DNA of 64,000 nucleotides from Octopus vulgaris (GCA_951406725.2 OX597815.1:89342001-89406000); one strand, 5' to 3'. Counted from the stretch's first letter, positions 7,741-61,044 are shown. Numbers and translations are program-made. Notes: a model not told the origin generated them from the sequence alone.

Positions 7741-8192
<452 letters not shown>

Positions 8193-9390
8193 TAAAAGAA
8201 AACTACTATAAAATAACCACCATAGGACTGCAAAAATATCTACTTCAGAAGGAAGGAAAACTGATCCAGATTGCAGCAAAACACGAGCAAAACAAAAGAC
8301 TGTTCTCAGTATTTAAGGAAGCTGACAAATACAAACAAGAAATCATACCACCTAATAAACATGAAGAAGAAGAAGAAGAAGAAGAAGAAGAAGAAGAAGA
8401 AGAAGAAGAAGAAGAAGAAGAAGAAGAAGAAGAAGAAGAAGAAGAAGAAGAAGAAACAACAAAAGCTATAAAACAAATGAAATCCAAACTAAACATAGAA
8501 CAGCAACGAACCATGATAAAACGATGGCAAGAAAAGCCCCTTCATGGTAAATACTGGACTAAACTAAACGCAAAAGAAATAGACAAAGAAAAATCCCAGA
8601 AATGGTTGAGAAGCTCAGGACTCAAAGCAGAAACAGAGGGATTTTTAATTGCAGCACAAGACCAAAGCCTCCCCACCATAAATTACCAAAAACATGTAAT
8701 GAAAAGAAATATTACAAGTAACTGCAGAATATGTGGAGATGGACAAGAAATAATAAATCATATTATCTCTAGCTGCCCAGTCCTGGCTAAGAAGGAATAT
8801 ATTCACAGACATGACAGAGTTGGAACCTACATACATTGGAAGCTATGCCAACATTATGGAATAACAACAGAAAAAAGATGGTATAGGCACACACCAGAAA
8901 AGGTCACAGAAAACGAGAAAGCAACCATACTCTGGGATATGCCGATACACACAGATAGAGAAATTAAGGCCAACAGACCAGATATAGTTGTCAGAGATCA
9001 TGAAGAAAAAAAATGCTTTCTAATTGATGTATCAATACCGGCAGATGACAACGTGTCTCTAAAAGAAATGGAGAAACTCTCAAAATACAAAGACCTGGAA
9101 ATAGAGGTAACTAGAATGTGGAATCTGAAAACAGAAACAATTCCTATCATAGTAGGTGCATTAGGCATGATAAAAAAATATTCAGACAAATACATAACAA
9201 AAACACCAGGACTTACAAACACATATAACATACAGAAAATTGCACTACTAGGCACTGCACACATCCTACGCAGAACACTTTCCATACAATAACCATCAGA
9301 GCATCACAACAAATCACAGCACATACCCAAGGCACACAGAGCTGCGCTCGGTAGTGAAGTGAAAGCACGCTATAAAAATAAAACTACTGA
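8193..9390 (+). mobile_element. young 5'-truncated R4/Dong-like element (open C-terminal ORF to 9292 plus 3'UTR)
   Basis: Uninterrupted frame with KPLHGKY, GLKAETEGFLIAAQDQSL, CRICG..E.INHIISSC (CCHC), RHDRV, ILWD..IHTD....NRPDIV, LIDVSIP, KLSKYKDL (PD-(D/E)xK RLE); flanked by (TAA)n on both sides. Confidence 0.93.
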
Positions 9391-39824: not shown

Positions 39825-39999
<175 letters not shown>

Positions 40000-40092
40000 G
40001 TTAAAAAACTGGAGAATTAACAAGAAAAAACAACGCGAGGACGTGGCATATACATAATATTAAAAGGACGCCCAGAGAAGGAAATAAAAGGT

Positions 40093-40127
40093 GTTTTACG
40101 TTTCGGACAAAATTCTTCCGCAGAAAC
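40093..40127 (-). ncRNA. degenerate minimal hammerhead (Penelope pLTR-type) in a TA-flanked insert
   Basis: Reverse complement GTTT-CTGcGGA-agaattttgtcc-GAAAC-GTA-AAAC; core A6 and stem II are mutated. Confidence 0.35.
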
Positions 40128-40206
40128 AGGAGACAGAGGAATGTCCAGGACAAAATTAAGGCGGAGGAAAAAATCGACAACTGTCCACATGTGGTTTATA
40201 TAAATA

Positions 40207-40311: not shown

Positions 40312-41181
40312 AAATATCTTTCGTTCAGTTTTTTTTTTATATATTTGCGCAGTACCTTAACAAGATCATATATAGTTCTATATTTAAGAGATGAAGAATT
40401 ACGTATTAATAATACGAATCAAGTATGGATTCAGGACATCCGTATACCGCAAGCTGGCCTTTACTGGACGATACCTCAACTTCAGTTCCCACCATCCATA
40501 CAGTGTAAAGAAAGGGATTGCTCAGTGCCTAAAACATCGTGCAAATAATATAAGTAGCGATCGTGATGCACACCACGAAGAAATGATGAAGCTCAATAAC
40601 GATCTGTTAAGCAACAACTACCCCAAGATTGTACTACCCGCTCCTATTATGAAGAAGAGAGAGGATGAGGCCAATAAACTGTCCATAGTCTGTTTACTCT
40701 ATGTGAAAGGCCTCTCCGAATAGATATGCGGCCCATATGACATTAGGACAGTATTCAAGAGTAATACAGCACTTCGCAAATATCTCCTTCAAGTAAAACC
40801 ACCAATAAAAGTGAATATGACCAAAAACTACGTGTACTCCATCTCATGCAGCTGTGGTAGGTTATACAAAGGCGAAACATGCCGCCCCTCAAAATAAAAG
40901 TAGACGAACATCGCAAAGCTGTGACACGATGAGATATTGATAAATCGGGTATCGCTGATCATGTATGGAAAAATGGGGACCACCTACCCTTGTGGGATGG
41001 AGTTAAAATAATAGACAGAGAACACCACTGGAAAATACGAAAACTAAAAGAAGCAGCACAAACGCTAGGCCACAACAACCTCCTAAGCAGACTGAGTGCA
41101 GATATGAGTAGCATATAGGAACCGGTATTAAAGAAAGATAGAAAAAATATTAGATTTAAAATTCACTCCATAATTGCCCAC

Positions 41182-41255
41182 GGGTATATGGTGTAGTGGT
41201 TAAGAGCGCAGTCTACTAACCCCAAGATTCCGAGTTCGATTCCAAGAAGTGACCT
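41182..41255 (+). other. tRNA-like (Pol III A/B box) segment in the PLE 3' region
   Basis: ggtatatggtgtagtggttaagagcgcagtctactaaccccaagattccgagttcgattcc: A box tggtgtagtgg, B box gttcgattcc; not a canonical tRNA. Confidence 0.6.
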
Positions 41256-41328
41256 GAATAATAATAATAATAACAATAATAATAACAACAACAACAACAA
41301 CAACAACAACATAAAAAAATACCTTAGG

Positions 41329-41370
41329 ACACCCGAAGAAGGCTGGAGGTTATATCAGCCGAAACGTTGT
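41329..41370 (+). ncRNA. partly degenerate minimal hammerhead of the PLE pLTR
   Basis: acAC-CCGAAGA-aGGCTG-gaggttatat-CAGCC-GAAAC-GTT-GT; stem I truncated. Confidence 0.55.
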
Positions 41371-41890
41371 AGAACATTCTAAACAATTTCTCTATTGTAA
41401 TCCAACCAAAATATTTAATTATTTAAATATTTCCTATTTAAATGTAGACAGTGGTAAAATTGTACCTAGTAAACTAACTGAAAATTCGAACCCCTTAATA
41501 TCACACACTACTTTCCAGAGAAGAAAAAACGAGATTCTAACATTATATTATGTTACATTTAGCATAGCTAAATTATGTTATATTTAGCATAGCTTGCAAA
41601 CGATAACATGACGTGTACTGTAAAATATTCGACAACAAATTTGGTCATTCAAGGCAGATTTCAAACAAAAGTAAACAAGTATGAGATCAAGTATAGCACA
41701 AGAGTTTTAACATTTTCATTGAGGTCACCATCACAGGCCCTTTATTCATTATTTAGGCGCGGCTACAAGACAGTGCTGAATCCTCATACACATCTGACAA
41801 GGTGAAAATGTGTTAGATGAAAATTAGGAATGTGTTTCTGTTGTACAGTCTGTATTTGACAATTATGTATGTGTGATTCCAACACGCATA

Positions 41891-41933
<43 letters not shown>

Positions 41934-41961
41934 GTACGTATATATATATATATATATATAT

Positions 41962-44900
41962 AACACGAAAAGTGGACAGTCAACATGCTAGATATAGACG
42001 TCAAATCGTCATTCACCACAAAAGATTATGTTCTCAGATCAAACTCAACACAAAACCATAGCAATAAACAAGTGAAAAATATACGAAATAAAATAATTAC
42101 CCATGTACTAACTTAGTTTCAGCTGTTATTTTCCGCAAGGAAAACTGCAGCCATCATCAGCATGGTCTGTTATAAATGTAATTTGCTGGACTAGATGCAA
42201 ACACGATACCGAAATATCGCGTGCATGGAGTTCAGCCTATTACATTTGAATATATCTTTCAAATGCCTTTACTTTGGCGCGTTGAAACCCGAGAAAACTA
42301 GCCTGCAGCTAATAATTAGCAGCAGTTAATTTATCGGTTAGAGAACATATTTATTTATATAAAATTAATTAAGGGTAGAAATTGATATTTATCAATTAAG
42401 ACCAGTGGTCTAGCATATTAAAAGAATCCGAAGATTAAAATATTTATATATACCAATTAAGGACTGAACACGAAAAGTGGACAGTCAACATGCTAGATAT
42501 AGACGTCAAATCGTCATTCACCACAAAAGATTATGTTCTCAGATCAAACTCAACACAAAACCATAGCAATAAACAAGTGAAAAATATACGAAATAAAATA
42601 ATTACCCATGTACTAACTTAGTTTCAGCTGTTATTTTCCGCAAGGAAAACTGCAGCCATCATCAGCATGGTCTGTTATAAATGTAATTTGCTGGACTAGA
42701 TGCAAACACGATACCGAAATATCGCGTGCATGGAGTTCAGCCTATTACATTTGAATATATCTTTCAAATGCCTTTACTTTGGCGCGTTGAAACCCGAGAA
42801 AACTAGCCTGCAGCTAATAATTAGCAGCAGTTAATTTATCGGTTAGAGAACATATTTATTTATATAAAATTAATTAAGGGTAGAAATTGATATTTATCAA
42901 TTAAGACCAGTGGTCTAGCATATTAAAAAGAATCCGAAGATTAAAATATTTATATAAATAAATATGTTCTCTAACCGATAAATTAACTGCTGCTAATTAT
43001 TAGCTGCAGGCTAGTTTTCTCGGGTTTCAACGCGCCAAAGTAAAGGCATTTGAAAGATATATTCAAATGTAATAGGCTGAACTCCATGCACGCGATATTT
43101 CGGTATCGTGTTTGCATCTAGTCCAGCAAATTACATTTATAACAGACCATGCTGATGATGGCTGCAGTTTTCCTTGCGGAAAATAACAGCTGAAACTAAG
43201 TTAGTACATGGGTAATTATTTTATTTCGTATATTTTTCACTTGTTTATTGCTATGGTTTTGTGTTGAGTTTGATCTGAGAACATAATCTTTTGTGGTGAA
43301 TGACGATTTGACGTCTATATCTAGCATGTTGACTGTCCACTTTTCGTGTTCAGTCCTTAATTGGTATATATAAATATTTTAATCTTCGGATTCTTTTTTA
43401 ATATGCTAGACCACTGGTCTTAATTGATAAATATCAATTTCTACCCTTAATTAATTTTATATAAATAAATATGTTCTCTAACCGATAAATTAACTGCTGC
43501 TAATTATTAGCTGCAGGCTAGTTTTCTCGGGTTTCAACGCGCCAAAGTAAAGGCATTTGAAAGATATATTCAAATGTAATAGGCTGAACTCCATGCACGC
43601 GATATTTCGGTATCGTGTTTGCATCTAGTCCAGCAAATTACATTTATAACAGACCATGCTGATGATGGCTGCAGTTTTCCTTGCGGAAAATAACAGCTGA
43701 AACTAAGTTAGTACATGGGTAATTATTTTATTTCGTATATTTTTCACTTGTTTATTGCTATGGTTTTGTGTTGAGTTTGATCTGAGAACATAATCTTTTG
43801 TGGTGAATGACGATTTGACGTCTATATCTAGCATGTTGACTGTCCACTTTTCGTGTTCAGTCCTTAATTGGTATATATAAATATTTTAATCTTCGGATTC
43901 TTTTTTAATATGCTAGACCACTGGTCTTAATTGATAAATATCAATTTCTACCCTTAATTAATTTTATATAAATAAATATGTTCTCTAACCGATAAATTAA
44001 CTGCTGCTAATTATTAGCTGCAGGCTAGTTTTCTCGGGTTTCAACGCGCCAAAGTAAAGGCATTTGAAAGATATATTCAAATGTAATAGGCTGAACTCCA
44101 TGCACGCGATATTTCGGTATCGTGTTTGCATCTAGTCCAGCAAATTACATTTATAACAGACCATGCTGATGATGGCTGCAGTTTTCCTTGCGGAAAATAA
44201 CAGCTGAAACTAAGTTAGTACATGGGTAATTATTTTATTTCGTATATTTTTCACTTGTTTATTGCTATGGTTTTGTGTTGAGTTTGATCTGAGAACATAA
44301 TCTTTTGTGGTGAATGACGATTTGACGTCTATATCTAGCATGTTGACTGTCCACTTTTCGTGTTCAGTCCTTAATTGGTATATATAAATATTTTAATCTT
44401 CGGATTCTTTTTTAATATGCTAGACCACTGGTCTTAATTGATAAATATCAATTTCTACCCTTAATTAATTTTATATAAATAAATATGTTCTCTAACCGAT
44501 AAATTAACTGCTGCTAATTATTAGCTGCAGGCTAGTTTTCTCGGGTTTCAACGCGCCAAAGTAAAGGCATTTGAAAGATATATTCAAATGTAATAGGCTG
44601 AACTCCATGCACGCGATATTTCGGTATCGTGTTTGCATCTAGTCCAGCAAATTACATTTATAACAGACCATGCTGATGATGGCTGCAGTTTTCCTTGCGG
44701 AAAATAACAGCTGAAACTAAGTTAGTACATGGGTAATTATTTTATTTCGTATATTTTTCACTTGTTTATTGCTATGGTTTTGTGTTGAGTTTGATCTGAG
44801 AACATAATCTTTTGTGGTGAATGACGATTTGACGTCTATATCTAGCATGTTGACTGTCCACTTTTCGTGTTCAGTCCTTAATTGGTATATATAAATATTT

Positions 44901-45477
44901 TAATCTTCGGATTCTTTTTTAATATGCTAGACCACTGGTCTTAATTGATAAATATCAATTTCTACCCTTAATTAATTTTATATAAATAAATATGTTCTCT
45001 AACCGATAAATTAACTGCTGCTAATTATTAGCTGCAGGCTAGTTTTCTCGGGTTTCAACGCGCCAAAGTAAAGGCATTTGAAAGATATATTCAAATGTAA
45101 TAGGCTGAACTCCATGCACGCGATATTTCGGTATCGTGTTTGCATCTAGTCCAGCAAATTACATTTATAACAGACCATGCTGATGATGGCTGCAGTTTTC
45201 CTTGCGGAAAATAACAGCTGAAACTAAGTTAGTACATGGGTAATTATTTTATTTCGTATATTTTTCACTTGTTTATTGCTATGGTTTTGTGTTGAGTTTG
45301 ATCTGAGAACATAATCTTTTGTGGTGAATGACGATTTGACGTCTATATCTAGCATGTTGACTGTCCACTTTTCGTGTTCAGTCCTTAATTGGTATATATA
45401 AATATTTTAATCTTCGGATTCTTTTTTAATATGCTAGACCACTGGTCTTAATTGATAAATATCAATTTCTACCCTTA

Positions 45478-45489
<12 letters not shown>
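41962..45489. repeat. fold-back tandem array of a ~507-bp HHR-containing unit (~2 inverted plus 5 direct copies) inside (TA)n
   Basis: Period 505 in 41962-42956 and 507 in 42954-45489; the differences I found lie in one A/T homopolymer; strand switch at tttatata ~42949-42956. Confidence 0.95.
43147..43211 (+). ncRNA. type-I hammerhead ribozyme (also at 43654, 44161, 44668, 45175 on + and 42101, 42606 on -)
   Basis: CCATG-CTGATGA-t-GGCTG-cagTTTTCC-ttgc-GGAAAAtaa-CAGCT-GAA-ACTAAgTTAGT-A-CATGG; canonical core, GUA cleavage predicted after 43206. Confidence 0.88.
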
Positions 45490-45509
<20 letters not shown>

Positions 45510-51967: not shown

Positions 51968-53330
51968 ACTAATCGCATTCCTTGAGGAAAATAACTTGCT
52001 GAGTGATACCCAGCATGGTTTTCGACCAGGTAGGAGCTGCCTGACCCAGCTCTTACAGCATTATGACTGGGTGTTGAGGCAGTTACTCAACAAATCAAAT
52101 GTGGACGTAATCTACCTTGATTTTGCAAAAGCTTTTGACAAGGTGGATCATGGTATGATACGTGACCTCGGCATAACTGGAAAACTTGGAGTGTGGTTGC
52201 ATGACTTCCTGAAAGATAGGAGTCAGCAGTAGTGGTTAATGGAGCCACCTCTATGAACACTCAAATAGTGAGCGGTGTTCCACAGGGCACTGTCTTGGGA
52301 CCACTGCTTTTTATAGTGGCCCTCTCAGATATGCCCTCAAATGCCCGGATAGCCACTCTGGCCAGATATGCAGACGATACGAAAGTCTCGCAGAAAATAC
52401 AGAACCCCAGCGATGTTGCATACCTGCAGCAGGAGTTGGACTCAATCTACAGATGGGCTGAGGATAATAATATGCAGTTTAATGCTGAAAAATTCCAGGC
52501 CCTGCGCTACCAGCATCCAAACCTGAATATTAAACTTACAGGATACACCGGTCCACAGGGAATTTCGATCCCAGAGCCTAAGTCTGTGACGGACCTGGGT
52601 ATCGACATGAGTGATGATACCTCTTTCCAAATGCACATTACCAGGATGGCGACAAAGTGCAGACGACTGGCTGGGTGGATCCTAAGAACATTCAGAACCA
52701 GAGATAAGGAAACCATGATGGTCCTCTGGCGGACATTCGTCCTCAGTCGCCTGGTCACCCACCAGTGTAAAATTAACAGCGGACCTTGAAGCAATCCGGA
52801 GAAGATTCACAAAGAAGATCATCTCTTTGAAACAGCTCAGCTACTGGGAAAGGTTGAAACAGCTAAGACTCTACTCCCTGGAGAGAAGACGGGAGAGGTA
52901 TGCAGTAATATATGTCTGGAAGATCCTGGAAGGAATTGTGCCAAATGTTGGCATTGTAAGCTACACCAATGCTAGAACGGGACGACACTGCATAGTGCCA
53001 AAGATCCCACCAATGCCATCACGCTTCAGGACCAGCTTCTGCAACAGCCTGGTTTTCAAGGGCTCACAGCTTTTTAATATTCTCCCAAAGAGTCTGAGGA
53101 ACTTGCACAAAGTAGATGTAGCGGTTTTTAAATCAAAGCTGGACATCTTCCTGTCAAGAGTCCCAGATGAACCTACCTCACGGCAAGAGGTGCAAATGAG
53201 AGTAGCTATATCAAACTCCATTCTTCACCAAGTGCCACATATTAGACGAGGTTCGTCGTAATAACAGTGTAGCACAAAACGGCGGTGCATCAGCATGGCC
53301 GCAGCTCTGACCTGAACCTAGAAAAAAAAA
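51967..53330 (+). mobile_element. 5'-truncated CR1-like LINE (RT pseudogene plus 3' tail)
   Basis: QHGFRPGRSCLTQL, YLDFAKAFDKVDH, SGVPQGTVLGPLLF, YADDTK, SYWERLKQLRLYSLERRRER; stops and deletions; A-tail at ~53322-53330. Confidence 0.92.
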
Positions 53331-55423
<2,093 letters not shown>

Positions 55424-58130: not shown

Positions 58131-58790
58131 AGTCAAAAACATTACAGACCTTCTCTGATTTTATAATAACCCTGTTGGCGGCCTATCCCAGAATTATGTA
58201 TGGACTGCTCTACATTATCTCAAAAAGTAAAGTTGCTAGAAAGAAATGAAGGGCATATTTTTATTTAGAAGATTGAATATGCCTAACATCAGTTCTAAGG
58301 CACCAAAAACCTTTTCCCCACTGGTATTAAATTATCATTAATGCAAATAGAGACAAGATAGATAGATAGATAGATAGAGAAAGAGATAGCGAGAGAGACT
58401 GTTGCAAATGAAAACTGAAAGTGCCACCTGCAATGTATTAATATTGTTTATTATAAAACATTAAAATCTACTCCGCAGTGAATGCAACGACTATTGAAAT
58501 TTGTGAAAAAATTAGACGCAGTGATTGCAACGAATATTTAAATTTCTGAAAAATTGGAGTTCAAAAATTCAATAAACTTCAGAAATCTAAATTATAGGGA
58601 ATGTTTTGAAACATAAATTTATGAAAAAAATATTACAGACGGTCAAGCCTTTAATAATTGCTTTCTTTTAGTACTTTTAGTAACTGTTACACACCTAGTT
58701 AGGTACGTATCAGTTACTAAAAGTACTAAAATTGATAAGAAAATTTCTCCATTATAATATATATATTAATCGAAGTCTACAGTGTTATAT

Positions 58791-58887
58791 ATCCGTTACA
58801 CCCGATCTTACGAACAGGTTTCGCACTAGGTGTTCAATGGAGTGTTAAGTAACAATCCGACTACTTAACCCTGTTCTCTTCAGGGAT
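58791..58887 (-). ncRNA. possible degenerate hammerhead with long stem-II insert next to (TA)n
   Basis: Reverse complement ATCC-CTGAAGA-gaac...(gttaagta/tacttaac hairpin)...gtgc-GAA-ACCTG..CGGGT-gtaac-GGAT; extra nucleotides at the cleavage site. Confidence 0.35.
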
Positions 58888-58897
58888 GGCAGTCATG

Positions 58898-60800
<1,903 letters not shown>

Positions 60801-60806
<6 letters not shown>

Positions 60807-60932
60807 TATATAGAAGGAGCTTCTACAGGACTAGAACTGTTTCATTCAAGAGAAATCATCAGGAAGCTTCCTGATGATTTCTCTTGAATGAAACAGTTCT
60901 AGTCCTGTAGAAGCTCCTTCTATATAATAAAT
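60801..60932. repeat. perfect 132-bp palindrome encoding a hammerhead on each strand
   Basis: Centre at AAG|CTT (60866/60867); + strand AGCTTC-CTGATGA-tTTC-tctt-GAAt-GAA-ACAG-ttctagtc-CTGT-A-GAAGCT (60865-60915). Confidence 0.88.
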
Positions 60933-60998
60933 TAATTTTACTCTGCTATGTATTGAGTACCTTATTTACTGTGGTTAACCCAGAATCAACCCGGGACC

Positions 60999-61044
<46 letters not shown>

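Follow-up and report, generated by a model that had tools for sequence, protein, structure and literature searches.

The array of 507-nt units in the 64-kb window (the whole stretch of DNA analysed), here called element A, is probably a non-autonomous Penelope-like element, namely a non-LTR retrozyme, which was inserted in one event. The retrozyme reading made in the initial annotation is supported by the anatomy: the units are tandem and non-coding, have 33% GC, carry a hammerhead each and fold as a circle with z −8.2. As judged from its sequence, element A has every sequence-level feature that defines retrozymes and most marks of Penelope-mobilised insertions, from which it departs in autonomy, in the G-C pair and in the 30–40-nt tail (an optional mark). 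The retrozyme class and its Penelope link have already been published; element A is recent and well preserved, but belongs to a kind of genomic parasite that is already known and is not a new system. Taken alone, the locus amounts to an ordinary transposon insertion, and nothing in it points to a host function.

In the available parts of the literature, the idea that retrozymes ride on Penelope-like elements is based on co-occurrence and pLTR likeness, not on insertion scars (PMC7229834; Li 2026). Element A and its sister element B display such scars on hammerhead arrays (a head in inverted orientation, (TA)n as the target, a 3′ end at a fixed position and a downstream signal in common), and both arrays are young enough for base-by-base reading. 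No description of family A, or of an inverted head on any retrozyme, was found in the accessible literature, in which subscription journals were poorly covered and Repbase and Dfam were not included.

Anatomy of the array and of its sister element

The window is AT-rich and full of microsatellites. Element A (Table 1) consists of an inverted head and five direct copies with a period of 507 nt (starts at 42949, 43456, 43963, 44470 and 44977), among which no difference was found (5/5 copies). This agrees with the annotated layout of five direct copies after about two inverted ones, the array being identical over 42949–45483 and the head comprising 1.96 units. The unit is non-coding (GC 0.33), its longest stop-to-stop frame having 60 aa. 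The head starts at unit position ~419 and ends at ~402, and it differs from the direct copies solely in the length of one T run, which is T6 in the array but T5 and T4 in the head. The inversion joint is in register with the 3′ end of element A, and the direct part, counted from 42947, comprises 5.02 units.

Table 1 Features of element A, element B and the adjacent Penelope remnant (window positions)
Feature	Position	Strand	Description
Broken RT-thumb/GIY-YIG end of old Penelope-like element	40403..41145	+	57–59% to RT/GIY-YIG proteins
Left target	41888..41962	.	TA-rich microsatellite; (TA)12 abuts element A
Inverted head	41962..42956	− (sense strand)	995 nt = 1.96 units
Hammerhead in head	42101..42165	−	Predicted cut 42106/42105
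Hammerhead in head	42606..42670	−	Predicted cut 42611/42610
Head-to-head inversion joint	42947..42956	.	8–10-nt overlap at self-complementary T/A word
Direct array	42949..45491	+	Five identical 507-nt units + 8 nt reaching into (TA)n
Unit part upstream of hammerhead	42957..43146	+	190 nt; strong self-pairing (z −5.2); without relation to element B
Hammerhead copy 1	43147..43211	+	Stems I and II of 5 bp each; extra U after core; predicted cut after 43206
Unit part downstream of cut	43207..43463	+	257 nt; homologous to same part of element B
Hammerhead copy 2	43654..43718	+	Predicted cut after 43713
Hammerhead copy 3	44161..44225	+	Predicted cut after 44220
Hammerhead copy 4	44668..44732	+	Predicted cut after 44727
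Hammerhead copy 5	45175..45239	+	Predicted cut after 45234
Right target (TA)n, entered by element A 3′ end	45487..45509	.	
Sister element B	59047..60755	+	Inverted head, 2.00 direct units of ~590 nt, three hammerheads

The longest hairpin has arms of ~908 nt at 41962–42868 and 42949–43857, with two differences in 909 columns. The arms of ~900 bp reported initially are thus present; the reported spacer of ~85 nt is in fact a loop of 80 nt, and it is not unique sequence, since it is the reverse complement of unit positions ~419–499 and hence inverted unit sequence. Long double-stranded RNA, which had also been suggested, could form from these arms but would require a read-through transcript from outside the element, because the arms lie head-to-head and internal promoters would fire away from each other.

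Element B, which lies 13.5 kb from element A and was found by the descriptor scan, is older than A. It has the same layout, with an inverted head (59047–59579), direct units (59575–60755) and a joint at 59575–59579. Each copy carries private changes, and the divergence between copies is ~1%. Its hammerheads have the core CCGAUGA, a perfect 8-nt palindromic stem III and a G-C pair, and the extra nucleotide is absent; the circle fold has z −4.2. The head of element B stops 6–8 nt past the cut site. A check for target site duplication showed that both flanks are (TA)n. All four ends of A and B touch (TA)n; positions no more than 10 nt from a (TA)8+ run make up 4.4% of the window. The left end of element A shows one base of homology. 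The difference between the two outer ends is ~110 nt for element A and ~300 nt for element B; the fixed 3′ end lies 257 nt past the cut in A and 308 nt past it in B.

The similarity of the two elements lies downstream of the hammerhead, where the alignment score was 99.5 against 60.6 ± 7.3 for shuffled sequences (0/500 as high). Upstream of the hammerhead no homology between A and B was detected (23.5 against 30.4; 480/500 shuffles). From this sequence comparison, the 257-nt downstream part of the unit is the likely cis signal for a Penelope RT, and the upstream cargo would be exchangeable. If this is true, two families would swap cargo ahead of a shared 250-nt cis signal.

Several smaller features occur around element B and at other (TA)n runs. 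Between (TA)n runs, 60801–61001 contains a perfect palindrome of 132 nt, in the middle of which lies a hammerhead-like core and whose right arm is longer by ~70 nt; by eye it is a stump-sized Penelope-type insertion adjoining element B. The element B cluster has a 66-nt imperfect palindrome (58666–58731) immediately to its left. By eye, short ends resembling hammerheads were recognised at (TA)n runs at 58760–58900 (−) and 39995–40200 (−), the latter with a changed core; both were missed by the descriptor.

The hammerhead ribozyme

Element A contains seven identical 65-nt type I hammerheads, five on the plus strand and two in the head. A relaxed descriptor found 11 sites in the window, compared with a mean of 0.17 (maximum 1) in 30 block-shuffles. 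The core CUGAUGA is followed by one extra U and later by GAA; stem II has 5 bp, the first of them G-U, plus an outer hairpin, and stem III is an 11-nt palindrome (43195–43205 in copy 1) with the predicted cut after GUA. The predicted cut position given initially for copy 1 (43206/43207) is correct. Of the seven near-identical canonical hammerheads that had been claimed, the number holds and the copies are even identical, but they are not fully canonical owing to the extra U and the G10.1-U11.1 pair. The extra U lies between A9 and position 10.1 and is a Penelope-type mark, a nucleotide after position 9 and before 10.1 having been described for Penelope hammerheads (PMC4209133). The G10.1-U11.1 pair stands in place of G10.1-C11.1, which is highly conserved (PMC4209133); at 43191 no family variant of at least 5% was seen in the contigs of four runs. 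A U-U first pair of stem II, a variant found in the available part of PMC3088659, was rejected by eye, as the following pairs then fail.

The Rfam hammerhead models gave no match at the gathering score over the window, nor at E ≤ 10 in three narrower scans. Matches to Rfam miRNA families were rejected; they fell on microsatellites and palindromes, all below the gathering score. Hammerhead patterns had no matches in metagenome and viral contigs.

The active fold of the hammerhead monomer was calculated at −17.4 kcal/mol, and this with five consecutive units compares with the at least two consecutive units, complete hammerhead and fold below −5 kcal/mol by which retrozymes were defined by Li 2026. 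In isolation the active monomer lies 2 kcal/mol above the folding minimum, and forcing it in a 560-nt context costs 2.1 kcal/mol. When two copies are cofolded, the minimum is the active dimer, at −45.0 kcal/mol, compared with −34.8 kcal/mol for a pair of active monomers. The dimeric activity between adjacent copies suggested initially is therefore supported in silico, but the dimer may be dispensable, as the active monomer costs so little in context. The circular monomer is more strongly folded than all 60 shuffles (z −8.2); of the two flank controls, one had a z of −2.3. The family variants gave no covariation support for the circle structure, 5 of 19 breaking a pair against 5.4 expected. Among the listed variants, those inside the ribozyme change only the centre of the stem III palindrome (43197–43200).

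On the basis of these models self-cleavage is plausible, and it is predicted, with rather more confidence than doubt, that the hammerhead cleaves well on its own. In the available part of a recent study, one of nine predicted Xenopus retrozymes was cleaved in vitro (Li et al. 2026, bioRxiv 10.64898/2026.07.22.740005). No RNA dataset is listed among the runs that contain the unit; a 415-nt contig of a run guessed to be RNA (X2) spans the cut site uncut, contigs showing neither ends nor strand, and this run was given no weight for or against expression. A natural circle-forming cassette of 507 nt would be a usable tool.

Two further features of the unit were seen beside the ribozyme. An imperfect inverted repeat just upstream of it (43065–43138; 71% over 76 nt) accounts for most of the folding energy of the unit. 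Directly after stem I, a splice-donor-like word occurs in both A (43209–43217) and B (60453–60461) and is followed by a pyrimidine-rich tract; as far as the sequence goes, the two may form a retained intron, a Penelope hallmark.

Family copies and the origin of the array

The unit was present in 20 of the 24 listed public runs (8 studies, 4 organism labels). A stretch of 499 nt that is free of repeats and includes the inversion joint (42868–43366), compared with the contigs of four of these runs, matched 1652, 9, 776 and 1502 contigs, respectively; the 1652, 776 and 1502 contigs of the three DNA runs were 85–100% like the unit. The head-to-tail joint was found in three of the four runs, with a depth of 2744 in one. 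Inverted-to-direct joints at other points made up 10 of the 14 listed joints (2, 1 and 7 in runs X1, X8 and X9, respectively), with depths of 5–68. These ten joints from other loci are candidates and serve as hints, as their short sides are only 20–30 letters among the joints listed; their break points are scattered and most resemble sub-unit stumps. An apparent hot spot of inversion joints at 42951–42960 (4 of the 10 listed) was rejected, since the inverted part of the compared stretch ends there.

Position 43144 is A in all seven copies of the window and G at 98.4, 100, 98.5 and 99.4% of the depth in the four runs. The presence of this rare base in every copy indicates that the head and the array come from one template and makes a collapsed family consensus, which would carry G, unlikely. 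The A is also a marker for tracing the source locus. No substitution was found in ~3540 nt, which gives a 95% upper age of 0.08–0.85 million years if 1e-8 to 1e-9 substitutions per site and year are assumed. Both the absence of substitutions over ~3.5 kb and the family-rare base in 7/7 copies support the very recent single insertion proposed in the initial annotation, although very recent can mean up to a few hundred thousand years.

An assembly artefact, i.e. a fold-back long read and/or a wrong copy number, is very improbable. It would suit the perfect arms and the confinement of the differences to homopolymer length, a typical long-read error, and the joint of this array was bridged by none of the best 32 of 4048 pieces. 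However, the mirror ends inside the unit and is followed by a unique flank, the consensus of collapsed copies would show G instead of the rare A at 43144, element B repeats the layout with private substitutions in each arm, and inversion-type joints occurred in three of the four independent runs.

The uniformity of the copies could also be of later origin, if a shorter Penelope-type insertion (head and about two units) had been lengthened by unequal exchange or slippage, or homogenised by gene conversion; copy number and identity would then be uninformative on one RT event. Recent unequal exchange yields identical tandem copies, and local amplification is favoured for retrozyme arrays in the available part of Li et al. 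2026. Yet tandem exchange cannot produce the inverted head, which is equally identical and has the same rare base, and the copies of element B retain private changes, so that homogenisation is not fast here. We regard such amplification at the DNA level as improbable.

Insertion of a retrozyme was further weighed against the possibility that the unit is the long pseudo-LTR of an autonomous Penelope-like element and the array a run of its 5′-truncated stumps. In autonomous elements, partial tandems are a normal occurrence and so are inverted pLTRs, as far as the available parts of PMC8557442 and PMC3846280 go. Short hammerhead-bearing ends occur at other (TA)n runs of the window, and the summed depth, which is not copy number, rose several-fold towards the 3′ part of the unit in all four runs. 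This origin is nevertheless unlikely, considering that five full units follow head-to-tail without an intervening ORF, that the head-to-tail joint recurs in three of the four runs, and that the best 18 of 277 loose ends were tandem joints, variant units or (TA)n and none was new coding sequence. Moreover, Adineta pLTRs have only ~190–220 nt according to the available text of PMC3846280.

Within the preferred reading of element A as a retrozyme inserted in one event, the number of units bears on the template. Counted from the 3′ end, the direct parts comprise 5.02 (A) and 2.00 (B) units, the rough chance of which is 0.001 (post hoc, n = 2), and neither begins at the hammerhead cut, the point at which a linear template made by cleavage would have its end. 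Whole-number direct parts with such starts favour a circle as the template, which was proposed for retrozymes in the available part of PMC7229834. The array may thus be the footprint of a Penelope-like RT that went five times round one circular ribozyme RNA and stopped at its start, a reading that we put forward tentatively and consider rather doubtful. The scattered break points of the ten joints from other loci speak against its generality. If it were true genome-wide, the rolling-circle retrozyme model would for the first time have evidence at the level of insertions, and the inverted head of Penelope insertions, so far unexplained, would be linked to the return of the RT to its start site. 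As the family is abundant, array lengths and joints could test a circle against a linear multimer as the Penelope RT template.

Insertion mechanism and relation to known elements

The insertion of element A might have proceeded as follows. The tandem locus would be transcribed, and the hammerheads, probably by pairing palindromic stems III between neighbours, would cut the RNA into 507-nt units, which may be ligated into circles. The RT/GIY-YIG protein of an autonomous Penelope-like element would bind the part downstream of the hammerhead, the putative cis signal, and nick (TA)n. Reverse transcription would start ~257 nt downstream of the cut, and the five units would be copied from a circle or from an uncut multimer, which we consider about equally probable. 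The second stretch could result from fold-back of the cDNA or from priming at the other nicked strand, to which twin priming of LINE-1 is a parallel, and would be joined head-to-head via the 8–10-nt overlap, closing the left end. Ribozyme action would be dispensable for the five-unit copying step.

By analogy, the combination of an inverted head and a (TA)n target corresponds to the standard Penelope-like insertion pattern. In the available parts of the respective papers, Penelope-like insertions are tandem, often with an inverted 5′-truncated copy, and (TA)n is favoured in some clades (PMC8557442, PMC8969392); in Adineta, inverted and direct pLTR lie head-to-head and overlap by 15 bp (PMC3846280). 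The available part of PMC11167929 describes that the anole Poseidon protein cuts AT-rich DNA and extends both strands, that its reverse transcription starts inside the RNA, downstream of the hammerhead and without target homology, and that hammerhead cleavage is not required by the anole Penelope RT in vitro. These published properties agree with the fixed 3′ end, the conserved downstream part, the single base of homology at the left end and the inverted head seen here.

The following comparisons rest on those parts of the cited papers that were available. Element A resembles the endonuclease-bearing Penelope-like insertions (PMC3846280, PMC8557442, PMC11167929) in its tandem copies, AT-rich or (TA)n target, 5′ inverted copy placed head-to-head (overlap of 15 bp in Adineta Pen2a, 8–10 in element A), nucleotide after position 9 and before 10.1 and fixed 3′ end downstream of the hammerhead. 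It differs in having no RT/GIY-YIG ORF, five full units and a head of almost two units, and its outer ends differ by ~110 nt, whereas the Penelope tail has 30–40 nt. With metazoan non-LTR retrozymes (PMC7229834; Li 2026) it shares tandem non-coding units with a type I hammerhead in each, GC below 50%, a self-paired monomer and a weak palindromic stem III. The 507-nt unit is inside the range of 51–972 given by Li 2026, where arrays mostly have up to seven units, but is longer than the 150–450 of Cervera and de la Pena 2020 (PMC7229834). Element A adds to these retrozymes the Penelope-type extra nucleotide, the G-U in stem II, the inverted head and the (TA)n target, and it is known from DNA sequence, not as expressed circles. 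The term "inverted" is absent from the available part of PMC7229834 and appears in that of Li 2026 only within the title of a reference. The non-autonomous Chlamys elements, e.g. MRC1 (PMC8557442), are similar in their non-coding multicopy head-to-tail insertions, their microsatellite targets and the confinement of likeness to kin to the 3′ part; they differ in coming from green algae, in their (CA)n/(C)n targets and in being mostly without canonical hammerheads.

Element A contains no RT/GIY-YIG ORF and no ORF above 60 aa, and is therefore non-autonomous at most. Six Penelope-type proteins matched only the old remnant upstream of the array, and not A or B. This remnant (context 40403..41375) has a degenerate hammerhead core at 41333, in which the extra nucleotide and the first pairs of stem II are as in element A. 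No BLAST match between the remnant and the unit was obtained within the window, where the sister non-coding family B alone matched the unit in the search for a partner pLTR. As a demonstrated partner of element A the remnant, which lies 600 nt upstream on the same strand and has a similar stem II, was rejected, being broken and without a DNA match to the unit.

A SINE with an (AAT)n tail, which we take to be tRNA-like from its box motifs, seems to sit in the 3′ UTR of the remnant (~41175–41310). ARAGORN predicted no tRNA genes in the window, and accordingly a tRNA cargo is not postulated. Elsewhere in the window, 7943–9292 contains the C-terminal portion of an ORF from a non-LTR retrotransposon (zf-RVT, below the cut-off with E 6e-5). 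Inserted (AAT)n and (GAA)n runs do not interrupt its reading frame, and it has a 90% homologue in a run assembly. Two facing LINE-type reverse transcriptase fragments (RVT_1) lie at 52220–53261 (+) and 53649–55139 (−), the latter being open for 496 codons.
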